DNA of 53,820 bases from IMG/VR virus record IMGVR_UViG_3300025671_012102, positions 1 to 53,820 of that record. One strand, written 5' to 3'. Positions within the stretch are counted from its first letter, which is position 1, and the number at the start of each line of letters is the position of its first letter. This DNA comes from a virus (lineage: Duplodnaviria > Caudoviricetes). Of the stretch, positions 1 through 50,368 are shown piece after piece. The notes beneath the pieces were generated by a model. It saw only the letters and a program-made list of their open reading frames with translations. It ran no database searches and was not told the DNA's origin. Made by a program: the position numbers and the translations under genes.

Positions 1-1017
1 ATGGCTACGGCTTATAGGAAGAACAGTGGTTGGCGTGGTCAAGCGGCAATCAATGGAAAAAGAAAAACAAAGGAAGGTTTTTCCACTAAACGCGATGCAA
101 TGGCTTGGGCGGCTAATGAAGAGCGCTTAGCAAAAGAAAGCACCTCTTCTGATATTCCAGATCGCCCCTTTAGTGAAGCGCTAGAACGCTACCGTGATAC
201 GGTCAGTGTGACCAAGCGTGGTCAAAAATTTGAAATCCGAAGAATTGAACGCTGGTTGGGCAAAAGCGCCGACGAACCAGCAGACCCACTCTGTTTTATA
301 TCCCTCCAAGACCTTCAATCAAAACACTTTGCCGAATGGCGAGACAGACGCCTGCAAAAAGTAGCCGTTGGCACAGTCTTACGTGAATGGACCGTACTTT
401 CTTCTATTTGCAGTCAGTGTGCGAAGGAATGGGGCTGGTTGAAAGAAAACCCAATGACAAGGGTGAAGCGTCCCAAAGAACCAGAAGCGAGAACAAGACG
501 GCTGTTGCCTGGCGAATTTGAACAACTGATGATCGCCACACAATACGACATAGAGATACCACCAGAATCCAAAAGCGAGCGCATCGGCGCGGCCATCGTC
601 TTTGCCATAGAAACCGCTATGCGTGCCGGTGAGATTTGTGGCATAACATGGGAGGACGTGAATTTAGAAAGGCGCACCGTTCACCTACCCAAAACAAAGA
701 ACGGTAATCCTCGTACCGTGCCGCTATCCACCACAGCCGTGAAAGTATTGGAAAAGCTCAAGACCTTAGATGACTGCAGGCTAAAAGCGTTTAATCTAAA
801 ATCAGACTCGCTTGATGTGAATTTCAGAAAGATACGCAACAAGTGCCTAATAGACGATCTACACTTTCACGATCTGAGACGGGAAGCACTGACACGACTA
901 GCAACTAAAGTGGACGTACTTAACCTAGCGAAGATATCAGGCCATACAGACCTAAGAATCCTGCAGCGGGTTTACTACGCACCAGATATGGGTGATATTG
1001 CATTGATGCTGGATTAA
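1..1017 (+). CDS. int: Tyrosine recombinase / phage integrase
   Basis: Catalytic residues R (TAMRAGE), K (KTKNG), H-x-x-R (FHDLRRE), H (SGH), Y (RVYY); N-terminal arm-binding-like segment. Confidence 0.95.
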   Translation: MATAYRKNSGWRGQAAINGKRKTKEGFSTKRDAMAWAANEERLAKESTSSDIPDRPFSEALERYRDTVSVTKRGQKFEIRRIERWLGKSADEPADPLCFISLQDLQSKHFAEWRDRRLQKVAVGTVLREWTVLSSICSQCAKEWGWLKENPMTRVKRPKEPEARTRRLLPGEFEQLMIATQYDIEIPPESKSERIGAAIVFAIETAMRAGEICGITWEDVNLERRTVHLPKTKNGNPRTVPLSTTAVKVLEKLKTLDDCRLKAFNLKSDSLDVNFRKIRNKCLIDDLHFHDLRREALTRLATKVDVLNLAKISGHTDLRILQRVYYAPDMGDIALMLD

Positions 1018-1035
1018 CTTGATGGATTTATATAT

Positions 1036-1656
1036 ATGGAGAGTAATAGTTTTACCTTAGGAGATATGTCAGAAGGGCTAATCAGACAAAGACGAAACTT
1101 GATATCTGTTTCTTGTATTCTTGTATTTCTAAAGTTTGCGGGTGTTGAAATTAGTAAGTTAAGTTTTCTTGGGTTAGATTTTGATGAATTAAAAAATCCT
1201 TCTGCTTTTTATTTGCTTATATGGGTAGCGTACTTCTACTTTGCACTACGTTATTACCAGTACTTTTGGCAGGAAGGTAGGTCTAAGGTCACAAATAATT
1301 ATATTAGTGGTGTGAGGAATCGTACCATTAATAAAGTATGGACTAATGCGAAAAAGAGCAAAATAAATGGAGAGTTTCGTACATATGAACCTAACACTTT
1401 AGAAGAATTAGAAGCTAATGATTGGAAGTATGAGGCAACTTATAGAAAAGCTGATGGGACAAAAATTGTCGTGGGAATGGTTCTGGAGAAAAAAGAACGT
1501 GTTAAATGTAGGGTGAATACAATTATTAATCTTACGTTCCATACCAGTATAGTGACTGATTACTTACTGCCATTCTTGTTCGCTATCGGTGCACTTTCTT
1601 ATTGTGCTACTGGATCAACATCAAGTTTGTTTTGGGCTTTAAGAGATAGCTTTTAA
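1036..1656 (+). CDS. Hypothetical membrane protein (cargo)
   Basis: 206-aa AT-rich ORF with about three hydrophobic segments; GGA upstream. Confidence 0.75.
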   Translation: MESNSFTLGDMSEGLIRQRRNLISVSCILVFLKFAGVEISKLSFLGLDFDELKNPSAFYLLIWVAYFYFALRYYQYFWQEGRSKVTNNYISGVRNRTINKVWTNAKKSKINGEFRTYEPNTLEELEANDWKYEATYRKADGTKIVVGMVLEKKERVKCRVNTIINLTFHTSIVTDYLLPFLFAIGALSYCATGSTSSLFWALRDSF

Positions 1657-1740
1657 AATATTATTTAATTCATGAAAGTTGTGTGAGTTAAGGAAAGATA
1701 TTTGATGCCGAAAAAATATGCTAATGAAAATCAGAATAAA

Positions 1741-1766
1741 AGCCGCTCTACCTAGGTAGAACGGCC
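1741..1766 (-). terminator. Intrinsic terminator of the toxin mRNA (possibly bidirectional)
   Basis: Hairpin GCCG(C/T)TCTAC-CTAG-GTAGA(A/G)CGGC followed by TTTT on the minus strand, just after the peptide stop codon. Confidence 0.7.
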
Positions 1767-1773
1767 TGTTCTT

Positions 1774-1851
1774 TTACTTGCGAAAAATAAGAACTAGTAG
1801 CTTCACAATATTCACTACCAGGGCAGTCACAAGGACAGCTATTTCTAGCAT
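1774..1851 (-). CDS. Putative type I toxin, 25-aa hydrophobic peptide MLEIAVLVTALVVNIVKLLVLIFRK (TisB/DinQ/ShoB-like)
   Basis: Read manually, below the ORF-track cutoff. GAGGTG Shine-Dalgarno at 1855-1860, one TM-like helix with a basic C-terminus, terminator downstream. Confidence 0.75.
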   Translation of the reverse strand: MLEIAVLVTALVVNIVKLLVLIFRK

Positions 1852-2090
1852 AAGCACCTCATTATCCTAGGTGCCGCTTGGTTGTATGTTTATCTGGCCT
1901 TCCACACACCAACATCGATGAAATGGTGCAAGCACACGGCAGTTAAAAATCCCTCTTTGCCAGCTAGCTGTCACACTAGGTTAGGGGTGTCTCCCCTAGC
2001 GATGAAGACGGTTCTAGAGATTAATTCACCGTTTACAACAGTAGTAATCTCCTTAATTGCCGATGCAGCCATTAACTCATCGATTCAATG

Positions 2091-2156
2091 ATTCTAAAGC
2101 AATGTTTAGGTTTAAGACAAACTAGGATTGGATATAATTGTGAAAAAGGTTACTAT
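2091..2156. promoter_or_regulatory. Divergent sigma70-type promoters for the toxin mRNA (minus) and antitoxin sRNA (plus)
   Basis: Minus strand: TTGTCT(2120-2115)-18 nt-TAGAAT(2096-2091), +1 near 2084. Plus strand: TTGGAT(2128-2133)-17 nt-TACTAT(2151-2156), +1 near 2164. Confidence 0.6.
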
Positions 2157-2163
2157 TTGACCT

Positions 2164-2247
2164 ATCGATGAGATGGTGCATTGCGCACATGATGTTAGGC
2201 CGTCAACCGAACATCAATGAATTAACTGCCCAAGTGGCGGTTTTTTT
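2164..2247 (+). ncRNA. Putative antitoxin sRNA (IstR/AgrB/OhsC-like arrangement)
   Basis: 5' end ATCGATGAGATGGTGCA matches 1914-1930 at 16/17 nt, so it is antisense to the toxin leader. Internal hairpin TGATGTT...AACATCA; terminator ACTGCC-CAAGT-GGCGGT-TTTTTT. Confidence 0.7.
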
Positions 2248-2396
2248 GTGCCTGGCGTTTGGTTTGACTAGCGCAAAAGAGCAAAACAATTTACTGTAAA
2301 GGAAATGACAACAATATGAAGCAATCATACACTCAGATTGCAGTGCAACTACGCTAGAAAAGCGCAGCATGTCACACTAGTAGTACAAGGGAAGTT

Positions 2397-3275
2397 ATGG
2401 CTAATAATGATAAGGGACGTGTCTTCGGCCATATTCCTGGGACCACAGTAGGTCAAATTTTTAAAGACCGTGCCGCTTTAGCGAAAGCCGGTATTCATAA
2501 ACCCAACCAAGCCGGGATTAGCGGTAGTGGTAAAGAAGGCGCGGACTCTATTGTCTTATCCGGTGGTTATGAAGACGATGAAGATCGTGGGGATGAGATA
2601 ATTTACACCGGTGCTGGCGGTCAAGACCCAGGGACCAAAAAACAAAACGCAGATCAAACCCTAGATGGCAAAAATCTAGCCCTAGCCAGAAGCCACCTAG
2701 AAGGTTATCCGGTTCGCGTTTCTCGAAGCCTCAAGCACAAAGACCCAAAATCAACAGAAAAAGGTTATGAGTATTCAGGCTTATACAAAGTAGATGACTA
2801 CTGGCAAGAAAAGGGCCGTTCTGGTTTTTATGTTTGGCGATACCGTCTTATTGCCTGTGACGAACAACCTATCCAAGTAGCACCTAACGAACCATCAAAC
2901 GGCTATACTGAGGCTAGGCGAGTACAAACCACCGTTCAGCGGATCGTTCGAGATACCAAAATAGCCAAGCACGTAAAGCTGCTGCACAACTACCAATGCC
3001 AAGTATGCGGGACCTCGTTAGAAACCAGTGCCGGTTTATATGCCGAAGCCGCCCACATCAAACCATTAGGTCAACCTCACAACGGGCCAGATGTAGAAAG
3101 CAACATCCTCTGTCTTTGCCCCAATCACCACGTACTCTTTGATAATGGTGGGTTCACCATCGATGATGAACTAAAGCTGATCGGCATAGAGGGCGAATTG
3201 AAGACAGTAAAAAAGCACAAGATTGAAAAAAAATTTATCCAGTACCACCGTGAACACTATCAGGTGAGAAGTTAA
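2397..3275 (+). CDS. SRA/YDG-HNH modification-dependent (5mC/5hmC) restriction endonuclease, TagI-like
   Basis: SRA motifs (FGHIPG, QAGISG, SIVLSGGYEDDED, IYTGAGG, YSGLYKV) plus HNH domain (CQVC, EAAHIKPL, NILCLCPNHH). Confidence 0.9.
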   Translation: MANNDKGRVFGHIPGTTVGQIFKDRAALAKAGIHKPNQAGISGSGKEGADSIVLSGGYEDDEDRGDEIIYTGAGGQDPGTKKQNADQTLDGKNLALARSHLEGYPVRVSRSLKHKDPKSTEKGYEYSGLYKVDDYWQEKGRSGFYVWRYRLIACDEQPIQVAPNEPSNGYTEARRVQTTVQRIVRDTKIAKHVKLLHNYQCQVCGTSLETSAGLYAEAAHIKPLGQPHNGPDVESNILCLCPNHHVLFDNGGFTIDDELKLIGIEGELKTVKKHKIEKKFIQYHREHYQVRS

Positions 3276-4217: not shown

Positions 4218-4424
4218 ATGGACAGTTCAACACCAAACTACGCGGTTTCTAGCAATAAGAAAAAAGCCATCTACTCCTTGAAGAGAATTTAGAAAAGTGT
4301 GGTGGCATGCGCCAAATTTCATATGGTTGAGGTTCTTGCCTATAAAGTAAAGACAATAGAGCTAAGAGACGGCGGACATCCGCTTATCATCCTAACGGAA
4401 CAAGAGTGGGTTAGGTTTATTTAG
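4218..4424 (+). pseudogene. Degraded remnant of a BRCT-domain protein gene
   Basis: AAGGAG SD and ATG, in-frame TAG after 24 codons. The same frame ends in TIELRDGGHPLIILTEQEWVRFI, resembling bacterial BRCT C-termini. Confidence 0.5.
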
Positions 4425-38541: not shown

Positions 38542-39489
38542 ATGACGTACGGTTTTGAGGTTACGATCAATGGCACCCAAGTTAAGCTGGATGACGAATA
38601 CGAAAACATTGTGTTGCTAGGTAAGAAAACTGTCCAACTCTCAGCAGGCTATCAAGTGGTTTCATTGTCAGAGTTTGAACACGAGAATCTAACAACCTGT
38701 ATTCGCCATCTAGGCTTTGGCGTGTCATTCTTAGGGTATATTTATAGCAATGGCAAACGAGCTGGATTAAGGCTATACGCAAGTGCGGCAGGCAAAGCGG
38801 AACTTGCATTACTTGTTCCATTTTACCCAATGCCAGAGCAAGGATATGGCGTTATTTTATATAGCGAGTTTGGAGAGCAGAAATTTCATTCTGATCACAT
38901 TTATTTCGATGTGAAAAATACGGGTGATTTGAATATTGGGGGGATCAATACAAGCAAAGACATGTATGTTTTAAGCAACCCTGAAAGCCCATCATTAAGG
39001 TATTACCCCCGTTACGAAGAGTATCAATTGCCTGTCTATGGTCAGGTTCCTTATCAGTCATGTAGTACATCATATCGATATGTGACAACTTGCACTTACG
39101 TTCCACCAAAAATGGTATGTGGTTACGTAAATGGCAGTTATTCCTGCAGTTACCAAGGAGGTGGGCAAGTATGTACGTCGAAACTTGAACCATATCAAGT
39201 TTGTAATACCTTTTATAAAACTGAAATTGTTGGATATCGAACAGAGTCTAACAGTTGGGTGAATTGCACGAAAACAATCGGCATGATTCAGCAAAGCATT
39301 GATGGCAATTTAAGCAAAACTACCGTGACGCTGAATAATAATCAGTATGCGTACGGGGTCTATGACTATGGCAACTACAATCACTTTAATGGATTGTCAT
39401 TTTCTTTGCCTGCCACTTTTATATTTAACCCACCATCAAACAAACTGGCGTTCAGTTCCCGAACCATTACCTGTAAAGCCATAGTTTAA
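38542..39489 (+). CDS. Tail-tip/receptor-binding candidate with Cys/Tyr-rich insert
   Basis: MTYGFEV...QVKLDDEYEN and YGVILYSE.G motifs of tail-tip proteins; six-Cys insert. Confidence 0.65.
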   Translation: MTYGFEVTINGTQVKLDDEYENIVLLGKKTVQLSAGYQVVSLSEFEHENLTTCIRHLGFGVSFLGYIYSNGKRAGLRLYASAAGKAELALLVPFYPMPEQGYGVILYSEFGEQKFHSDHIYFDVKNTGDLNIGGINTSKDMYVLSNPESPSLRYYPRYEEYQLPVYGQVPYQSCSTSYRYVTTCTYVPPKMVCGYVNGSYSCSYQGGGQVCTSKLEPYQVCNTFYKTEIVGYRTESNSWVNCTKTIGMIQQSIDGNLSKTTVTLNNNQYAYGVYDYGNYNHFNGLSFSLPATFIFNPPSNKLAFSSRTITCKAIV

Positions 39490-39502: not shown

Positions 39503-39602
39503 CTGACAATTGATAACGAATAAGCTATAGTTTTCCCATGCTGCCATAAGTGTGTGCAGTCCCATTCTTTTTAAATTAAACCGCCCCAGTGGCGGTTTTT
39601 TT
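39503..39602 (+). promoter_or_regulatory. Second putative late promoter plus terminator, upstream of the ejection genes
   Basis: CTGACA-17 nt-TATAGT; terminator AAACCGCC-CCAGT-GGCGGTTTTT at 39578-39602. Confidence 0.55.
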
Positions 39603-39622
39603 GTGCCCAAAAAAGGTGATTT

Positions 39623-40315
39623 ATGAAAGTCAGCCGAACCTATGACATAGAGGCGGTTGACGCCATATTGAGAGATCCGTCTGTATTTGGTGGCATTATT
39701 AACGACAGCTCACCGGATAAAGCAGACTTTACTGCCAGAGAATTATTGTTAAATCGTCGCAACATTGTGCTTATGGTATCGGAAGAAGGGGAGAATATTG
39801 GGTGTTTCATCTGTGTGCAGTGCTCACCTTCGACCTACGAAGGGCATATAAATTTAACGGCACTTTGTAGAGGTAGAAAGGCCCTTGAAGCTCTTGATCT
39901 TGGAGCGAGCTGGTTATTTACGAACACGGACGCATTTCGAATTATTGGGCTCACCCCAGAATCAAACAAACCTGCTTTATCTATCACTAGGTTGGCTGGC
40001 TACTGCAGGATTTCTGTTAGAGAAAAAGCCATATCTATCTCAGGGCACAAGCAGAACATAATCCAATCAGAGTTAACGCTTCATAAGTGGCTGTCAAATC
40101 AACAAGCTTACGAGAGTGCAAATACAGGGCTTGATACCTGGCACCTTCAAAACCTTTTTTTCGCTAAGGCTCTTGTTGAGTCTGGTAACGCCAAAAAAGC
40201 GGCATTCCTACTCTCAGAGCTATCACATCAATCTTATGCAAAGCGAATTTGTATTAAAGATTATCCATTTATCAAAATTGAAGCGACAAGCTTCCATGTC
40301 AAAGACATTTTTTAG
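39623..40315 (+). CDS. GNAT-fold virion-associated protein (DUF2824-like)
   Basis: YEGHINL...RGRKA...WLF...IIGLTPESNKPA...AGY; precedes the ejection genes. Confidence 0.7.
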   Translation: MKVSRTYDIEAVDAILRDPSVFGGIINDSSPDKADFTARELLLNRRNIVLMVSEEGENIGCFICVQCSPSTYEGHINLTALCRGRKALEALDLGASWLFTNTDAFRIIGLTPESNKPALSITRLAGYCRISVREKAISISGHKQNIIQSELTLHKWLSNQQAYESANTGLDTWHLQNLFFAKALVESGNAKKAAFLLSELSHQSYAKRICIKDYPFIKIEATSFHVKDIF

Positions 40316-42196: not shown

Positions 42197-45100
42197 GTGG
42201 CCGATTACACAAGAGAAGAGATAGCGCGCCTAGCCGCAATCAAAAAAAGAATTAATGGCAAAATGGAGAGCCTTGGTTCGTCACCTGAAAACGAGCAGGG
42301 CTTTTTAGGTGATGCGGTCGATGCTGTTCAACATGGTTTGTTGAGTGGAGCAGCAGACTTAACGGACGGTGTTGGCTATTTAACTGGATCTGACACTATT
42401 AGAAAGGGCGCGAATTATCTAAGAGGCCAAGCAGACAACCAAATTAATCAAATGTCACCAGATGGTCGTGAGGCGTTTCAAGGGTTTGGTATTCAGGCTG
42501 ATGAAAGCAGCCCAACTGGTTATGGCTTCAAAGATGAAAGCAGCTTAAAAGGCTTTGGTCTTAATGTGCTTAGCGGTGTAGGCAGTTTTGCCCCAACAAT
42601 GGTGCCAGGGCTTGGTGCTGCCAAAGCGATTTCAGTTGCAGGTAAAGCAACAGGGCTTGCAGGTAAAGGAACAAAAGCGGCCACAGCACTAGATAAAGGC
42701 GCTGATGTTGTAGGCTTTGCAGGTGCTGGCGCTGCGAGCATTGGCGGATCTACAGGCAACCAAGCTTATGAAACCGTCGTTAACGCTGACTTTCACACAT
42801 TAAAAGACGCTGAAATTTTCCAAAAAGAATACTGGAACCTGAGAAAACTCAAAGAGCTTGATCATATTTCCGCACTGAAGCAAGCGCGTGAAAATGTGGC
42901 TCGCGAGCTGGCAACGGAAGCGGCAAAAGATGGCGCCATCATGGGGGCGATCACGCAAGGCGCACTTGGTCCAGTGATGGGCAAGTTATTCCGTGGTGAG
43001 GCTGGCAGTATCGGTAAAGCAGCCGCCACCGGTGCAATTACCGAAGGCTCACAAGAGTTTGTTGAAAGCGGTGGTCAAACTGCTATCTCAAACATGGCTG
43101 TTAATCCAGCGGTACCAACCAACACAATGGATAATGTCGTTGGCGATGCGCTGACAGGTGCCATGGTCGGTGGCCCCGTAGGTGGTGGCTTTGGTGCAGC
43201 TGGCGCTTCTTTCGGTCGCTTTCGTAAGCCTAAAGACAACACGGATGATCCGCTTGATCTTTCCGAGCAAGATCAAGGCTATCAAGCAGTAGAGCGGCAG
43301 ATTGCCGAAATTGAAGGCTTGATGGTTGAAAATGGCGACAATTTAACAGATTCTGAATTTGCAGAGCTTGAAGCAAAGCGAAATGAGCTACTACAAAGAC
43401 GAGCGGAAATCACTGGTGAACAGCCTATGGATTTTTCTGGTCCAGTCGAAAGCCAGGTGCAACCAGAGCAGCTTGCTCTTCCCAATCAAAATATTATCTA
43501 TGGTGAACGCCCAGAGCCAAGCCAAGAGCAAATCCAAGCGCGTCAAAAGAACCAAGCTGCCTTTGAAGGCCAATTTGGTGAGCCACGGAATACAGGAAGA
43601 GAGGGTGAATACCTTGGTCAGGTCTTTCCGGAAAGCGCCAATCAACAACAAGGCGGTAATGTCTATGATGGTGAAGTGTTGCGCGATCCTTTGTCACTTG
43701 AAGCGCCACAGCAAGCCGGTGATGTACCAGCGCTAGAAGATGCAGGGATTATTTATGGCGAAAAACCAGAAAGCAATGCTCGTCCAGCTCGTTCCAATGG
43801 TTTAACCGACCCATACACCGCGCCACAGCCAAGCCGTAAAAACGACAATCCAATCTATCAAGAGATTAAACATAAACAGCGATTGCTTGAAGAACAAGAG
43901 CAATCAGTAACAGAAGAAGCAGCGCCACAGCTTAACCAACAAGCAGTCCCTGAAGCACCGTTAGAGAAATCAGCTCCACAAAATGAAGTATTAGTATCAG
44001 AGTCTAAAAATGTAACTGAGTTGCCAGCAGTTGAAAGTAGTCCTGTTACTCAGCCGCCATTAGAAGGCATTGTCGCCGAGCAAGAACAGCCATCATCTGC
44101 AGAGCTGCCAACTGAGGGCAGCGAGCCAATCAAGCAAGCATTAGATAAGGCTGCACAGGACACAAATACCCAGCCAACTGAAAAGCAGATCGAGGCTGAT
44201 AACTATAAAAAAGGTCGGGTATCTCTTCATGGCTTAGATATCGCCATTGAAAATCCTAAAGACTCTGTTCGCTCAGGCAAAGATAGTGATGGTAAAAAAT
44301 GGGAGTCTAAAATGGCTCACCATTATGGCGATATAAAAGGCATTAAAGGGGCCGATGGCGATGACCTTGATGTATTTATTGGCGATAAACCGGAAAGTGA
44401 CAAAGCCTATATTGTCGATCAGGTCGACCCAAAAACAGGCGAATTTGACGAGCATAAAGTCATGCTTGGTTTTGATGATAAAGCGCAAGCTGAAAGCGGC
44501 TATCTTAAAAATTACGAGGATGGCTGGAAAGGTGTTGGTGCTGTGACTGAAATGCCAATCAGTGAATTTAAAGAGTGGATTAAGTCTGGCGATACGACAA
44601 AGCCGGTTAGTGAATTGATGGGCGGTAAAGCAGATAAAGTCATTGAAGCAGAACCAGCCGAGTTGCCACCTGTCACTGTTAAATTATCTTTATCCAATAA
44701 GCCTTTTAAAACCGAGTCCAGCGCTCGTTTATCTCGTACATTCAAAGACACACCTAATGCCGAAGTTGTACCTGTGGATGGCGGTTTTGGCGTTAAAGAG
44801 GGGGAAGTAGCCAAGCAGAATGCAGAACCAGCAACAGCCAAAGTCAATGTAGACGAAAGCGATGAACCACCTTATGCCCATTATCATTCAGTCCAAAAAA
44901 ACTTGTTTGATGGTAAAGAGGTGACAGCTGATGAGGTAAAACAAGGCTTTGAGCGCCTTGCTGGTGACCCTGCAAGAGCAAAAGCTGAGCTAAATAAGCT
45001 AACCAAGAAAGAATTGGCAAAAATAGTTAATGGTCATGTTTATTCTGATGAAAAGAAAGCCCGCCTAGTGGAGCGTGCTTATCAATCGAGTATTAGTCGG

Positions 45101-48100
45101 TACCGATTCATTGGAAATAATAAAGGTTCTTTTACTTCTCATTCCATTAAGTTAGATGGCGTAATTGATGAAACACGTAAACACCTGAATTCATTAAGCA
45201 ACGAATCGCTAAAAGATTACGGTGCCCACCTTCGCGAGCAACAAGCAGAGCGTCAAAAGAAGTTTAATGAATACAAAGAGAGATTAACCAACCCAAAAAC
45301 AATAAAAGACTTTCAAGACTCTATAGCGACACTTGGCAAAGGTCGTTTATCTGATGAACAGCTTGCTCAGTACGATAAGCTACTTGCTGAAAAAGAAATG
45401 ACAGATAAGCCAGCCGTTAAACAAGGCCTAGAGAGTGATGAAAAAATAGAGCTTGGCGAACCAGAAGAAAGTACTCATGGAAAAACAGGAGACACTATCT
45501 TCAATGTAAAGGCAATTACTCGCATTGGTAAGGAGAAATTTAAGGAAGCGGCTAATTTTGCTCGATCTTTGGGTGGTGGTTACTACCGTAGCAATTTTTA
45601 CTTTAAAAGCCGCGAGGATGCAGGGCTTTTTAGCAATTGGATGAATGGAGAGGATGTAGACCTTACCGAGAAAAAACAGGCGAGAGATCAAGCCAAGAAA
45701 GAAAGCGCTGCAAGCCGATTAAAATCAATGGCAGATAGCCTAGAACAGCAAGCGAACGAAAGACTTAACTCCGAGCGCAAAGAGAATACTATAAAGCGAA
45801 TGAGAGAGGCAGATAGTGCTCGCAACGCTGCAAATAATGACATTGAAACGGCCAGACTTCTAAAAGCCATTGCAGATAACCCTAAGTCTGTATTGAAAAA
45901 TCTCACGCAAAAAGTGCAAGTAGAATTGTTTCAGCAGCTTCAAAAATCACTTGTCCACTATGCCCCTTCTGAGCTAAAGCAAAAAACACCGGATGGATAT
46001 GATCATTTTAGAGGTGACGTAAGCTCTGAAAAAAAAGCACAGCTTGTAAAAATGCCTTTAGCTGAACTTCATCAAAACTTAGTAGATGATATTGCGAAAA
46101 AAAGTGAAGGTAAAAAAGGCTTTATTCTCTTATCTAGGATGCTTGCTAAAAAATCAAAACAAAGTGAGAGAGGAAAAGTTATACCTTTAGATCAGCGTGA
46201 AATAGAAGGAATTATTAAGTTTTATGAAGCGAATAAAGAAGATTTTCAATACAGTTTTTTGAAGAATAATGTCGAAGATTATAAGCGATTGAAGCGTATG
46301 GGCATTACCAGCAAGCCAGCTCTAAGGGCCGCCTTGTTAGAGTTTATGAACATAGAGAAAAAGGTAGATAAGCCAGAAACAGGAAAAAGTAAACTGGAAG
46401 TCATGCAGCGCAATTTAAAACAAAGAGTGCTTGGAAACCGTAATGCCTTTAATGACTTCTTTCCAACTCCAACAGAAACGGCTAGTGAGATTATTGATCT
46501 AGCAGATATTCAGCCTGGCATGAAAGTGCTTGAACCTTCTGCCGGTAATGGCTTGCTGGCAGACGCAGCAAAAGAGGTTGGTGCAAAAGTCGATACTGTT
46601 GAAATGGCTGGCCAGTTGCGTGAAATTCTAAGCGAGAAAGGTTACAGGCTAGTTGGTGATGATTTCCTAGAATACAGCGGCGGCATTGGCGAATACGATC
46701 GCATCGTTATGAATCCCCCGTTTAGCAACGACCAAGATATTCAGCATGTTGCGCATGCCTATGACAAATTAAAGCCAGGCGGTCGATTAGTCGCGATCGT
46801 GTCTAGGATGGCAGGCGAGCGCCAAAACAAACGCAATAAAGCATTTAGTCAATGGCTTGATGACCTTGGTGCCGAAACTCAAGCGTTACCAGAAAACGCT
46901 TTTAAATCCTCGTTAAACCCAACAGCCGTGCGAACTAAGGCAATCATCATTGATAAGCCAGAAGACGGCAGTATTAATGTTCCGGAAGAAGTTAAGCCAC
47001 CTAAAGAAGCGCTAATGTCAATTAGCGAGCGCGCGGCAAGTGGTATGAAAGCCGAAGATATCCGAAAAGCAGTTGAACCGCTTATCAAGCAGCTTCACGA
47101 AGAAAACACCTTTCAAGTTGTCCAGTCTGTTAACGATTTACCCTTTGCCGTGCGCCTTCTTGTTAAAAAGCAGTTATCTAAATCGAAAGGCGAGAATGCA
47201 ACCGTTCGCGGTGTGAATGCCGGTGCCAAAAACTATCTTATTGCTGATGGTATCAAGGACGAAAAAGAAGCGGTTTCTATCTTCCTTCATGAAGTGGTTG
47301 GGCATAAAGCTGTTCTGGATATGCTAGGAAAGGAAGGCGATTCCATCATGGAACGTATTGCTTACAGCTATGGACCTAAACAGCTGCAGGACTTAATTAA
47401 AGCCTATGGTGCAGATTTCAAAACCAAAGAAGGGCGCATTCTTCTTGGCAAAGAAAAAGTGGCCCAAATGGCTGAGAGGAACGAGAAACCTTCTTTGCTT
47501 GGCAAGCTGGTAGCAAACGTAAAAGCATGGTTGCGCAATTACTTCCCCAATATCAAATGGTCAGATAATGACGTGCTCAACATGCTGGCAACCGCGAGGG
47601 ATAACGTCGAAAACCGCTACATGGTGAAAGTTGACCTAGATTCAGCCGAATCGAAAAGCGATTCAACCGAGAAAGAGGCTAATCTCTCTATAAGGGCCAA
47701 AAACAAAACAGAGCCAACCGAAGAAACACCATACGACACTCTATATAGAACATTAGGGCAAAAAGATAAAACCGTCTTCCAGAAAGCAAAAGATGAAATG
47801 AAGCGTCAATTTAAAGCCGGTGGGTTGCTTCCTGACTCTGTATTCAGCAAAAAAATTGAACGTGATTCAAACATGAATGCCAGCGAACTGGATGTTAGCG
47901 CTTATCTATCATCATTCAGAGCAGCTGTGAAAAAAGCATATGGGAAAGAGTACTCTGATTTAAACGATACGCTTAAACAAAAAATCAATAATCAGATGAG
48001 TTCGACTGACCCAGATAAGACCATACCTTTCTCCGTTAGGCTGGAATTGATGAAGATGAGATTTAGCATCAAAGGCTTATCGCAAGAATATGCTGCCATT

Positions 48101-50368
48101 CTAAAGAGTGATATGGAGCAATTAAGAAACGAAGGCAAAGACACAGCTGCAAACGAAAAAGCTCAACTATTGGAAACGATATTGGGCAATTTGGACACAT
48201 ACACTAATAGATCATATAAAGCCTTTGATGATCCGAAATGGCCTAAAAAAGTCCCTCAGAATATCTTAGATGATGCTAAAAACTACCTTGAATCACGCTA
48301 CCTTGATCAAGGGTTATCAGAAAAGCAGATTCAAGAAAAAGTTGCTAGGACAATACGAACTATCTTGGAAGAGGGAACAGCTTATGAGGATATGGGGAGC
48401 TTTATAAAAGAAAGTAAATTAGGTGCTAAGGATTTAAGTACCTTGAAGAAAAGAAAGGAAATCGCCCCTGAAATTCGGGCATTGTTAGGCGAATACCAGG
48501 ACGTTGAAGTTAACTTTGCCAAGACAGTTACAAAGACAAGTCATCTCGTCGCAAACCATAAGTTTCTTCAGCATGTTCGTGATTTAGGTGAAAAAGAAGG
48601 CTTCTTGTTTACGGAAGAAAACAAACCTCTCGATAAAAGTGTTGTGAAAATTGCCGCGGATGGTTCGGAAGTTATGGCGCCATTAAATGGCTTCTACACT
48701 TACCCTGAAATCGAACAAGCTTTTAGAGAGGCTCTTGGTAAGCAGGGTGATATGCCAGCATGGTTAAGTGGAATTATTCGATTAAACGGCATTGTGAAGT
48801 ACGGGAAAACTGTTCTATCACCCACCACGGCAATGAGAAACATTTGGTCTGCTTTTTTCTTCTCTGTAGCAAACGGGCATTTTGACGTTAGCCAAATGCG
48901 TAAGTCTATCGAAGTTAGAAAACAGTACTTTGGTGGCGACAATGACAAAAGTAAATTGGCCTATCTTAAAAAATTAAAAAGCCTTGGGGTTATTTATGAT
49001 ACGCCTTATGCGGGTGAAATGATGGACCTTTTAGAAGATTCTCGCCTGCGGGATTTTATGACTAACAAGAAGGTCTTTTCATCGTTTACTAAGCTTAATG
49101 ACTTTGCTCAAAAATTTTACCAGTACGGTGATGATATGTGGAAAATCATGGGCTGGGAAAACGAGAAAGCCATGCTCATGAAATACAAGAAAATGAGCGA
49201 ACCTGATGCCGAAGTTGCTGCCGCTGAACGCATTCGCAATACATACCCAACTTATTCGATGACAGGGCGATTTACCCAGTCTCTCAGACGCTTCCCTCTT
49301 GCTGGTACCTTTGTTTCGTTTCCCGCTGAAATTATTCGAACTAGCTATCATATGATTCGCTATCTTAAGCAAGACTTTAAAGAGTCACCTGCTTACGCTA
49401 GACGTAAAGTAGCCGGTTTGGCTCTGGTCAGCAGCTTAGCATTTGCTGCCCAAGGAGTAAGTAAGGCGTTAATGGGGCTTGACGACGACGAGGAAGAAGC
49501 TGTTAGAGATATGGCTGCATCTTGGCAGAAAAACTCAAACATATTGTTTACTGGCCGCGACGAAAACGGAAATATTCAATATTTGGATATGTCGTTTCTT
49601 GATCCCTACAACTATTTCAAACGTCCAATTAATGCCATGTTAAGAGATCAGCCTATTAAAGACATGGTTGCTCAATCCGCTTCTGAAATGCTGACCCCTT
49701 TCTTTGGTGAAGACATTACCTTTAGTAATTTGATGGAGGTTTACACAAACAAGAAAGGCAGTGGCGGGAAGGTGTTTAATGAACAAGGATCAGTGGGAGA
49801 TCAGGCTATGGATATAGCTGACCACTTAAGGAAAGGTTTACAACCGGGCTTTATGAGCAATATGGAACGAATGTATAAGGCTATGGAGGGAGATGTTTCT
49901 GCCAGTGGTAAAAAATACACTGTACAAGATGAAATGGCCGCTCTTGTTGGCTTTAGAATGTCAACATTAGACCCTAAAACGGCACTTTATTATCAGAGCT
50001 TCGACTTTAAGCAAAGCAAAGCTGATGCCGCAAAAATACTAAAGGATGTTTTAAGAAACCCTAACAAGGTGTCAAAATCCGATCTAGAAAACGCAAGAGA
50101 TACGATGCTTAAAGCTAGAAAAAATTCATACGACAGGATGATGCGATTAGTTAAGTCTGCGAAAAAAGCAGGTATGACAAACCCAGAGATAGGACAAATA
50201 TTGAAGTTAAGCGGAGTCAGTCGACAAGACGTTATGTCTCTCATTCTTGGGCGTATGCCAAAAAATGATAGTTATCTTGAAATGGCTGCTTCTATATCAA
50301 AAAGAGCAGAGGTTTTGTACGGCAAAGAGTCTGGAAACGAAATCATAAGTAGAGCGAAAGGACTGTAA
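42197..50368 (+). CDS. Large polyvalent/internal virion protein: InPase-like domain, amino-methyltransferase, zincin-like HExxxH and large helical C-terminus (DarB-like)
   Basis: YKKG...IENPK.S.RSG.D..G..W...M..HYG.I.G..GADGD.LDVF (~44200-44590); DFFPTP, LEPSAGNG (46529), NPPF (46712); HEVVGH (47288). Confidence 0.85.
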   Translation: MADYTREEIARLAAIKKRINGKMESLGSSPENEQGFLGDAVDAVQHGLLSGAADLTDGVGYLTGSDTIRKGANYLRGQADNQINQMSPDGREAFQGFGIQADESSPTGYGFKDESSLKGFGLNVLSGVGSFAPTMVPGLGAAKAISVAGKATGLAGKGTKAATALDKGADVVGFAGAGAASIGGSTGNQAYETVVNADFHTLKDAEIFQKEYWNLRKLKELDHISALKQARENVARELATEAAKDGAIMGAITQGALGPVMGKLFRGEAGSIGKAAATGAITEGSQEFVESGGQTAISNMAVNPAVPTNTMDNVVGDALTGAMVGGPVGGGFGAAGASFGRFRKPKDNTDDPLDLSEQDQGYQAVERQIAEIEGLMVENGDNLTDSEFAELEAKRNELLQRRAEITGEQPMDFSGPVESQVQPEQLALPNQNIIYGERPEPSQEQIQARQKNQAAFEGQFGEPRNTGREGEYLGQVFPESANQQQGGNVYDGEVLRDPLSLEAPQQAGDVPALEDAGIIYGEKPESNARPARSNGLTDPYTAPQPSRKNDNPIYQEIKHKQRLLEEQEQSVTEEAAPQLNQQAVPEAPLEKSAPQNEVLVSESKNVTELPAVESSPVTQPPLEGIVAEQEQPSSAELPTEGSEPIKQALDKAAQDTNTQPTEKQIEADNYKKGRVSLHGLDIAIENPKDSVRSGKDSDGKKWESKMAHHYGDIKGIKGADGDDLDVFIGDKPESDKAYIVDQVDPKTGEFDEHKVMLGFDDKAQAESGYLKNYEDGWKGVGAVTEMPISEFKEWIKSGDTTKPVSELMGGKADKVIEAEPAELPPVTVKLSLSNKPFKTESSARLSRTFKDTPNAEVVPVDGGFGVKEGEVAKQNAEPATAKVNVDESDEPPYAHYHSVQKNLFDGKEVTADEVKQGFERLAGDPARAKAELNKLTKKELAKIVNGHVYSDEKKARLVERAYQSSISRYRFIGNNKGSFTSHSIKLDGVIDETRKHLNSLSNESLKDYGAHLREQQAERQKKFNEYKERLTNPKTIKDFQDSIATLGKGRLSDEQLAQYDKLLAEKEMTDKPAVKQGLESDEKIELGEPEESTHGKTGDTIFNVKAITRIGKEKFKEAANFARSLGGGYYRSNFYFKSREDAGLFSNWMNGEDVDLTEKKQARDQAKKESAASRLKSMADSLEQQANERLNSERKENTIKRMREADSARNAANNDIETARLLKAIADNPKSVLKNLTQKVQVELFQQLQKSLVHYAPSELKQKTPDGYDHFRGDVSSEKKAQLVKMPLAELHQNLVDDIAKKSEGKKGFILLSRMLAKKSKQSERGKVIPLDQREIEGIIKFYEANKEDFQYSFLKNNVEDYKRLKRMGITSKPALRAALLEFMNIEKKVDKPETGKSKLEVMQRNLKQRVLGNRNAFNDFFPTPTETASEIIDLADIQPGMKVLEPSAGNGLLADAAKEVGAKVDTVEMAGQLREILSEKGYRLVGDDFLEYSGGIGEYDRIVMNPPFSNDQDIQHVAHAYDKLKPGGRLVAIVSRMAGERQNKRNKAFSQWLDDLGAETQALPENAFKSSLNPTAVRTKAIIIDKPEDGSINVPEEVKPPKEALMSISERAASGMKAEDIRKAVEPLIKQLHEENTFQVVQSVNDLPFAVRLLVKKQLSKSKGENATVRGVNAGAKNYLIADGIKDEKEAVSIFLHEVVGHKAVLDMLGKEGDSIMERIAYSYGPKQLQDLIKAYGADFKTKEGRILLGKEKVAQMAERNEKPSLLGKLVANVKAWLRNYFPNIKWSDNDVLNMLATARDNVENRYMVKVDLDSAESKSDSTEKEANLSIRAKNKTEPTEETPYDTLYRTLGQKDKTVFQKAKDEMKRQFKAGGLLPDSVFSKKIERDSNMNASELDVSAYLSSFRAAVKKAYGKEYSDLNDTLKQKINNQMSSTDPDKTIPFSVRLELMKMRFSIKGLSQEYAAILKSDMEQLRNEGKDTAANEKAQLLETILGNLDTYTNRSYKAFDDPKWPKKVPQNILDDAKNYLESRYLDQGLSEKQIQEKVARTIRTILEEGTAYEDMGSFIKESKLGAKDLSTLKKRKEIAPEIRALLGEYQDVEVNFAKTVTKTSHLVANHKFLQHVRDLGEKEGFLFTEENKPLDKSVVKIAADGSEVMAPLNGFYTYPEIEQAFREALGKQGDMPAWLSGIIRLNGIVKYGKTVLSPTTAMRNIWSAFFFSVANGHFDVSQMRKSIEVRKQYFGGDNDKSKLAYLKKLKSLGVIYDTPYAGEMMDLLEDSRLRDFMTNKKVFSSFTKLNDFAQKFYQYGDDMWKIMGWENEKAMLMKYKKMSEPDAEVAAAERIRNTYPTYSMTGRFTQSLRRFPLAGTFVSFPAEIIRTSYHMIRYLKQDFKESPAYARRKVAGLALVSSLAFAAQGVSKALMGLDDDEEEAVRDMAASWQKNSNILFTGRDENGNIQYLDMSFLDPYNYFKRPINAMLRDQPIKDMVAQSASEMLTPFFGEDITFSNLMEVYTNKKGSGGKVFNEQGSVGDQAMDIADHLRKGLQPGFMSNMERMYKAMEGDVSASGKKYTVQDEMAALVGFRMSTLDPKTALYYQSFDFKQSKADAAKILKDVLRNPNKVSKSDLENARDTMLKARKNSYDRMMRLVKSAKKAGMTNPEIGQILKLSGVSRQDVMSLILGRMPKNDSYLEMAASISKRAEVLYGKESGNEIISRAKGL

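Follow-up and report, generated by a model that had tools for sequence, protein, structure and literature searches.

A probable type I toxin-antitoxin locus in a Marinomonas prophage: a short hydrophobic peptide gene with a structured leader and a divergent small RNA

The window analyzed here, that is, the whole stretch of 53,820 bases, is an entire IMG/VR provirus record (IMGVR_UViG_3300025671_012102), estimated to be 84% complete, whose close relatives were found in Marinomonas only. The locus of interest lies at positions 1740 to 2247 and consists of two divergent units, a minus-strand messenger RNA (mRNA) with a long leader and a 25-codon open reading frame (ORF), referred to below as the toxin ORF, and a plus-strand small RNA (sRNA) gene. 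The toxin ORF (MLEIAVLVTALVVNIVKLLVLIFRK) is located at 1774 to 1851 on the minus strand (codons 1851 to 1777; stop codon at 1774 to 1776) and is followed on the same strand by a predicted Rho-independent terminator (1767 to 1740), in which scanning identified 12 base pairs and a T-tail. A consensus scan found the promoter-like sequence TTGTCT-18-TAGAAT at 2120 to 2091 of the minus strand, placing the transcription start site (+1) near 2084 and generating a leader of 233 nucleotides (nt). On the plus strand, a second promoter-like sequence, TTGGAT-17-TACTAT (2128 to 2156), was recovered by a relaxed scan after being missed by a stricter one. Together with a terminator it delimits an antitoxin-type sRNA of ∼84 nt at 2164 to 2247, an assignment also based on its fold and on a family alignment. 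The sRNA comprises a 5′ seed (2164 to 2180, extending to 2188), stem-loop 1 (SL1; 2176 to 2188), stem-loop 2 (SL2; 2191 to 2215), and the terminator (∼2224 to 2242) with its U-run. The two promoters are arranged back to back, with a distance of 80 nt between the predicted +1 positions (2084 and 2164).

Two homologous loci were used for comparison. L023 is an IMG/VR provirus whose sequence is present in identical form in a Marinomonas atlantica genome (G001, as L024/L026); it holds the complete locus, with 75% identity over 507 nt, adjoining a different, 395-amino-acid integrase. L033, from genome G040, provides a third copy of the toxin, consisting of the ORF, the hairpin around the Shine-Dalgarno (SD) sequence, and the leader up to the sRNA target site. 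A search of genome contigs with the leader pattern also produced a match in M. atlantica Cmf 18.22. The peptides encoded by the window, L023, and L033 (MLEIAVLVTALVVNIVKLLVLIFRK, MRDIAVLVLELSIEVVKLLNTIFSK, and MLEVAVLVISLIVNIVKLLTLIFRK, respectively) are hydrophobic with a polar stripe and have a sizeable helical hydrophobic moment; the grand average of hydropathy was 1.99 for the window peptide and ranged from 1.1 to 2.0 across the three. Start, stop, and length of the ORF are conserved in all three homologues, and its frame is the sole one open in each of them, as the other two frames contain stops in at least one homologue. Pairwise differences at the first, second, and third codon positions were 9, 6, and 13; 6, 3, and 10; and 10, 5, and 13, with the third position always the most and the second the least variable, and the window and L033 ORFs differed by nine synonymous and five nonsynonymous codons. 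This substitution pattern, the single shared open frame, and the hydrophobicity together indicate that the toxin ORF is a coding gene for a predicted membrane-type amphipathic helix. With 25 amino acids, it falls among the hydrophobic peptide genes of <60 amino acids under coding selection that are typical of type I toxins.

The leader upstream of this ORF contains three pairings that could restrict its translation. The SD sequence (GAGG, 1860 to 1857) sits in the 3′ arm of a hairpin, GCACCU/AGGAUAAUG/AGGUGC (1874 to 1854, minus strand), which was recovered in local folds of the window, L023, and L033 and forms part of the consensus fold. In L033 the arms read GGCCUC and GGGGCC instead of GCACCU and AGGUGC, and the pairing is kept; the stems of the toxin terminator likewise differ in L023 and L033 yet still pair. 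The second pairing involves the 5′ end of the primary toxin transcript (2084 to 2064). In the minimum free energy (MFE) fold of the 347-nt mRNA, nt 1 to 9 (AUCGAUGAG) pair with the site targeted by the sRNA (z = −3.35; 0 of 100 shuffled sequences folded as well), closing a 171-nt domain of the leader. This target site is located at 1937 to 1914 on the minus strand (mRNA nt 148 to 171), 62 nt upstream of the AUG, and its core (1914 to 1930) is bound by the mRNA 5′ end and the sRNA alike; from the folding models, it is a candidate standby site or a site exposed after processing.

The third pairing is that of the sRNA itself. Its first 17 nt are identical to window positions 1914 to 1930 at 16 of 17 positions, which makes them complementary to the minus-strand leader, with a G-U wobble at the one position that differs. 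RNAduplex predicted that the pairing runs six pairs further past a small internal loop (GCGCAC with GUGUGC, 1937 to 1932), resulting in a duplex of 17 + 6 bp, with an energy of −39.1 kcal/mol when sRNA nt 1 to 30 are paired with the mRNA. When the first 20 nt of the sRNA were shuffled, none of 1,000 variants equaled the real seed in its pairing with the mRNA, both for the window and for L023, and the target was the best non-self match to the seed in the 53.8-kb window, with no other site matching so well. A preliminary description of the locus had proposed the peptide and its terminator, a promoter ∼230 nt upstream with +1 near 2084, an SD sequence locked in the GCACCU/AGGUGC hairpin, pairing of the mRNA 5′ end with the sRNA target, and a divergent ∼84-nt sRNA with 16/17 complementarity to the leader, and each of these elements was recovered.

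Comparison of the window with L023 showed that long stretches of the leader are invariant, and that all three interacting elements have changed. The sRNA 5′ end reads AUCGAUGAG-AUGGUGCA in the window and UCUACGU-AUGGUGCA in L023, the leader target reads UGCACCAU-UUCAUCGAU and UGCACCAU-AUGUAGA, and the mRNA 5′ end reads AUCGAUGAG and (G)UUUACGU, respectively. Both pairings, sRNA with target and mRNA 5′ end with target, are nevertheless kept in each lineage, so the complementarity originally noted in the window alone extends to this relative. Cognate duplexes had energies of −39.1 and −37.8 kcal/mol, whereas exchanging the partners between the window and L023 gave −26.8 and −25.0 kcal/mol, i.e., 12 to 13 kcal/mol worse. 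An independently computed MFE fold of the L023 mRNA also closed nt 1 to 8 on the target (z = −3.81), and the consensus fold retained the pairs between nt 1 to 8 and 164 to 171, of which three were compensatory, three changed on one side, and two invariant. Promoter-like sequences were identified by scanning at equivalent places in L023, TTGATC-18-TAGAAT for the toxin and TGGATA-17-TAAAAT for the sRNA. The complementarity between sRNA and toxin mRNA that characterizes type I systems is therefore seen in the duplex, in the shuffling controls, and in the covariation of seed and target.

L033 has a different organization. At 1540 to 1761, its leader runs at the target site directly into the antisense of the sRNA gene. 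No promoter-like site was identified on either strand of this fused locus, and a minus-strand terminator blocks read-in. This fusion structure, with its missing promoter-like sites, would be expected after a deletion between the direct repeats of target and seed in which both promoters were lost.

Contigs assembled from four RNA-library runs belonging to four studies were placed on window positions 1600 to 2400. They covered 1683 to 2070 only, which corresponds to the predicted toxin-transcript region, and contigs of two studies ended a short way inside the predicted +1, at 2069 and 2070. None fell on 1600 to 1680 or 2086 to 2400; for an sRNA of 84 nt in standard libraries, such a lack of coverage is uninformative either way. 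In the metatranscriptome run X20, a contig spanning 1768 to 1930 had a depth of 483 and one spanning 1909 to 2070 a depth of 3.8, and the break in depth coincides with the 5′ border of the sRNA-binding site. The loose ends of one contig read like the L023 form, and another contig diverges upstream of 1930, showing that further variants exist. The contigs agree with the limits predicted for the transcript and give a weak hint of an abundant 5′-shortened form starting at the sRNA site.

The sRNA part of the locus proved to be more widespread than the toxin part in BLAST searches of 64 Marinomonas genomes. Additional copies were collected by pattern scans from one viral contig and two metagenome contigs, and 11 copies were aligned. 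All 11 share SL1 and end in a terminator hairpin, the sequence of which differs in L047 and L078b, and the SL2 loop is CCGUCAA in 10 copies and CAGUCAA in L078b. The first ∼11 nt are variable, with at least seven seed types. Across the alignment, 96.7% of cells conformed to the paired structure, compared with ≤43% in slid controls; four pairs had changed on both sides, and 0 of 500 shuffles reached the covariation score. A covariance model built from the family scored 101 bits for the window sRNA (the only strong match in the window) and gave strong matches (>85 bits) in 6 of the 64 genomes, the next best match having 37 bits. At E ≤ 0.01 the model matched 58 of 64 genomes, those outside the six strong ones with at most 37 bits; of five such weak matches inspected, four were not members of the family and the fifth, L102, is possibly a decayed relative. 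A second sRNA-like unit was observed in the window at 39503 to 39607 (+), between ORFs at 38542 to 39489 and 39623 to 40315. It consists of a promoter-like CTGACA-17-TATAGT, ∼70 nt, and a terminator that hardly differs from the one ending the antitoxin sRNA, and it recurs with an identical promoter in L043 and L045; it scored just 25.6 bits with the sRNA model.

Only three of the 11 sRNA copies are adjoined by the toxin. Integrases of three kinds accompany the copies: those at L094, L098, L095, L097, and L077 are 83 to 100% identical to the integrase of the window, those at L099 and L047 are of the L023 type, and that at L078 is of a third kind. In L034 and L039, the sRNA promoter follows directly after the integrase stop codon, and in L078 two tandem sRNA copies with different 5′ seeds are located downstream of the integrase gene (1477 to 1696, minus strand). 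In the slot between integrase and sRNA, L097 carries a HicA/HicB pair (320 to 1061, plus strand), and L077 carries a PemK/MazF-like toxin gene without an obvious antitoxin gene (1909 to 2382, plus strand), as does L035 in the same region. The sRNA seed of L077/L035 is identical to that of the window; pairing of the L077 sRNA with the neighboring PemK-like mRNA was no better than chance (63 of 300 shuffles were as good), and no target was detected for this sRNA. No targets of orphan sRNAs were identified within 1.5 kb. A genome-wide search for seed complements with ≤2 mismatches in three orphan-carrying genomes yielded sites that appeared chance-like, and the two 1-mismatch sites inspected lay in coding genes.

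The toxin itself was found in few genomes. A profile of the peptide gave genuine matches in 2 of the 64 Marinomonas genomes (G001 and G040; E < 1e−13); at E ≤ 1 it matched 22, and the four marginal matches inspected were all inside longer genes or in other frames. Among 401 genomes sampled from the order, the single match was G001 itself, and among 400 sampled from the class (one unscored), G001 was accompanied by one match at E = 0.013, with no convincing further member. The family-level DNA search covered the same 64 genomes as the genus set. The toxin was not found in the remaining genomes searched, which is not the same as being absent from them. BLASTN of window positions 1700 to 2300 against plasmids and phages and TBLASTN of the peptide against phages returned no match. 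The toxin-leader pattern had no match in metagenome contigs and identified, in viral contigs, L023 and one chance match. A 17-mer seed pattern matched 19 viral contigs once each, none of which was homologous by BLASTN beyond the motif.

Searches of family databases did not place the locus in a described family. With cmscan against Rfam, positions 1400 to 2600 gave four weak matches at E ≤ 10, to unrelated families and far below the gathering scores. A six-frame search of the window for TisB_toxin was negative; this is a weak test, as an E. coli control was also below the cutoff. No match was found to those of the Zor/Orz, ShoB/OhsC, DinQ/AgrB, Hok, Ldr, Ibs, and Fst families that have Pfam or NCBIfam models. 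A literature search found no type I system described in Marinomonas; supplementary candidate lists (PMC2887945, T1TAdb) were outside its scope, and an earlier listing there is possible.

In its design, the locus resembles a group of E. coli systems. According to the outline given in PMC8594479, TisB/IstR1, Zor/Orz, ShoB/OhsC, and DinQ/AgrB have the sRNA gene 5′ of the mRNA, divergent, without overlap, and within 300 nt, and their primary transcripts are inert and the processed forms active. The same divergent, nonoverlapping arrangement is present in the window, with +1 sites 80 nt apart. As in tisB/istR-1 (as summarized in PMC7708055 and PMC8594479), a small amphipathic membrane peptide is combined with a long structured 5′ untranslated region, a divergent nonoverlapping sRNA is predicted to pair with a single-stranded site far upstream of a sequestered ribosome binding site, and the 5′ part of the primary transcript would hide the sRNA site. 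The distance from this site to the AUG is 62 nt here and ∼100 nt in tisB. Unlike E. coli tisB/istR-1, the locus is carried by a prophage of Marinomonas, has no PF13939 or Rfam antitoxin membership, and lacks a LexA box. No CTGT-N8-ACAG sequence with ≤1 mismatch was found in 1700 to 2300, as the preliminary description had observed for the toxin promoter; 14 matches occur in the window, all elsewhere and in a number no greater than chance.

A further resemblance is to zorO/orzO. By the abstract of PMC5397157, the sRNA of that system pairs with the 5′ untranslated region over 17 to 18 nt, the full-length untranslated region inhibits translation, and the processed form opens an upstream region that is needed for translation and is the sRNA-binding region. 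The zorO/orzO and zorP/orzP paralogues of E. coli O157:H7 have diverged seeds, as do the window and L023, and antitoxin-only loci are common, with ∼30% of E. coli genomes carrying orz without zor and the orphan being expressed, according to the summary in PMC11264685. No sequence similarity to zor/orz was detected (Rfam, Pfam, NCBIfam); the leader here is 233 rather than 174 nt, the orphan sRNAs adjoin integrases, and the seed is far more variable between copies. The dinQ/agrB and shoB/ohsC systems of E. coli share the gene order and the trans-acting sRNA (PMC8594479, in outline), and the +1 transcript of dinQ is described in the abstract-level account of PMC5066626 as inert and activated by loss of its 5′ end; again there is no sequence membership, and the locus lacks the SOS box. 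The rac prophage of E. coli likewise carries a type I pair, ralR/ralA, whose trans-encoded sRNA is described as having a short complementarity of 16 nt, but its toxin, RalR, acts as a DNase rather than as a small membrane peptide. In contrast to Hok/Sok and Ldr/Rdl, the window and L023 show no overlap between toxin mRNA leader and sRNA gene; an overlap exists in L033, whose fused form has no promoter-like site.

These comparisons support the tisB/istR-1-type architecture put forward in the preliminary description, for which the three-way covariation in L023, the coding-type substitution of the ORF, and the confinement of RNA contigs to the toxin transcript provide comparative evidence. That description needs correction in two respects: no sequence membership in the tisB, zorO, shoB, or dinQ families was found by Rfam, Pfam, or NCBIfam, and the sRNA belongs to a wider integrase-linked family, mostly without toxin. 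As the design matches that of the tisB/zorO group and sequence membership is lacking, the locus represents a separate family with the same design. What appears to be new is thus a family unrelated in sequence to tisB/istR-1 and zorO/orzO, the kind and the design being known.

By analogy with the described systems, the locus could function as follows. A minus-strand mRNA of ∼345 nt (2084 to ∼1740) would encode a 25-residue hydrophobic, amphipathic peptide which, like other type I toxins, may insert into the inner membrane and dissipate the membrane potential. Translation would be blocked in three ways: by the SD sequence forming the 3′ arm of a local hairpin, by nt 1 to 8 or 9 of the primary transcript pairing with the site 62 nt upstream of the AUG, thereby closing the 171-nt domain and hiding the site, and by the divergent ∼84-nt sRNA, whose predicted single-stranded 5′ end would bind the same site (17 + 6 bp; ∼−39 kcal/mol). 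The primary transcript would be inert, as stated for tisB and zorO in the abstracts of PMC7708055 and PMC5397157. Processing at the 5′ end could then free the site for ribosome standby or unfolding, and the sRNA would compete for the freed site and probably trigger cleavage. Were sRNA synthesis to cease, because the prophage is lost or an infecting phage shuts off transcription, translation of the stable mRNA would follow and the cell would be arrested or killed. The module may serve prophage maintenance, persistence, or abortive infection.

The locus, situated in the cargo region near the integrase of a Marinomonas prophage, is in our view likely to be a type I toxin-antitoxin module. Several observations weigh against this interpretation. 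The long-range MFE fold of the window mRNA pairs the SD region in a local arrangement other than the simple hairpin, although the SD sequence is still paired. The covariation derives from few lineages, namely two independent full loci (window and L023) and one partial locus (L033). The RNA contigs carry no strand, true ends, or levels, and one of them, X23, extends beyond the toxin terminator to 1683. The L023 peptide matched TisB_toxin (PF13939) at E = 0.074 with 13.9 bits, below the cutoff of 25, the window and L033 peptides had no Pfam match at E ≤ 10, and none of the three peptides had an NCBIfam match at E ≤ 10. Finally, eight of the 11 sRNA copies have no toxin nearby, and the sRNA may therefore have another or an additional function. 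This last point is the basis of an alternative we regard as unlikely, in which the sRNA chiefly serves prophage regulation through other targets (in lysogeny, excision, or cross-immunity) and control of the ORF is secondary or lineage specific, or the complementarity is a duplication remnant. Such a role would suit a family of which only 3 of 11 copies adjoin the toxin, whose strong model matches (6 of 64 genomes) outnumber those of the peptide (2 of 64), and which is found beside integrases of three kinds; moreover, the CCGUCAA loop of SL2 is near-invariant (10 of 11 copies), and the target site resembles a paralogue of the 5′ part of the sRNA gene. However, a plain duplication relic would not be expected to behave as seed and target do, having changed together between the window and L023 such that swapped partners pair 12 to 13 kcal/mol worse. 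The target is also the best non-self seed match in the window, the seed complements in the three orphan-carrying genomes are only chance-like and lie inside coding genes, and orphan antitoxins have a precedent in a true type I system, the orz-only E. coli genomes (as outlined in PMC11264685).

Two further readings concern the ORF. The peptide could be a nontoxic small membrane protein, such as a transporter modulator or a phage-related membrane factor, that is riboregulated without being part of a toxin-antitoxin pair. Many small hydrophobic proteins are nontoxic, the peptide was below threshold for every toxin family, and its toxicity is predicted by analogy. Against this, the combination of triple translational silencing and a dedicated antisense sRNA characterizes type I toxins (by the abstracts of PMC5397157 and PMC7708055), the same integrase-sRNA slot holds a HicA/HicB pair or a PemK-like toxin in related elements, and L033 resembles a locus stripped of both promoters by one deletion; we rate this reading slightly below the regulatory one. 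That the minus-strand RNA is noncoding, and its 25-codon frame and pairings are chance intergenic features, seems very improbable. The ORF is indeed very short, and the promoter and terminator scans report consensus matches only, but the substitutions are of the coding type with start, stop, and length conserved in all three homologues, covariation was found in four separate helices, and none of the 1,000 seed shuffles paired as well.

Comparison of the locus with L023 amounts to a natural compensatory-mutation experiment, as seed, target, and mRNA 5′ end differ between the two lineages and both helices are kept. Almost all that is known in detail about type I systems combining a trans-acting sRNA with a long regulatory leader comes from E. 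coli and its close relatives; here, an unrelated family with the same three-layer logic is carried by a prophage of a marine gammaproteobacterium. Retention of the helices despite the changed elements supports 5′-end closure together with an upstream site as a general, convergent solution. With the window and L023, two orthogonal sRNA/leader pairs would already be at hand for tests of standby-type translation control. The variable seeds and frequent toxin loss of the integrase-linked sRNA family offer a route to the origin of orphan antitoxins, and the slot occupied elsewhere by HicAB or a PemK-like toxin a route to toxin-cargo exchange in prophages. More speculatively, the sRNA might be a portable scaffold (SL1, SL2 with its CCGUCAA loop, and terminator) with a swappable 5′ seed, placed beside integrases of Marinomonas prophages and islands, whose seeds diversify with cognate leaders; elements with the sRNA only or with tandem copies (L078) could then use it for anti-addiction or cross-immunity, neutralizing the type I toxins that related elements bring in or compete with. 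In this scheme, the direct repeat of seed and target would also constitute a built-in exit, one deletion dropping both promoters, of which L033 looks like an example. We hold this as a tentative idea, with the odds against it.

The genomic setting is that of a prophage cargo region, as had been suggested. A tyrosine integrase gene (Pfam Phage_integrase) occupies positions 1 to 1017 of the provirus record and is followed by a 206-amino-acid ORF without assignment, the toxin/sRNA locus, and an ORF combining SAD/SRA and HNH endonuclease domains (2397 to 3272), for which PADLOC returned weak matches to HNH and type IV restriction. Beyond it are two unassigned ORFs, with phage genes further along. 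The SRA-HNH gene that follows the sRNA is shortened in L034/L094 and L038 to ∼100 amino acids, the HNH part being kept and the SRA domain lost. The ∼150 nt past the sRNA terminator, including the first codons ATGGCTAAC (window 2248 to 2405, plus strand), are conserved in other Marinomonas genomes, being present in L034, L038, and L046 and partly in L036 and L042, while the gene bodies downstream differ. From its sequence, this stretch looks like a fixed leader ahead of an exchangeable cargo gene. A short frame with its own SD sequence, starting MDSSTPNYAVSSNKKKAIYSLKRI, is located at 4218 to 4292 (+); it resembles the truncated start of a gene, the 288-amino-acid ORF directly after the conserved leader in L042, and such a truncated gene start suggests that cargo was inserted there. 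In the late region of the prophage, a 2,723-amino-acid ORF was observed at 42197 to 50368 (+).

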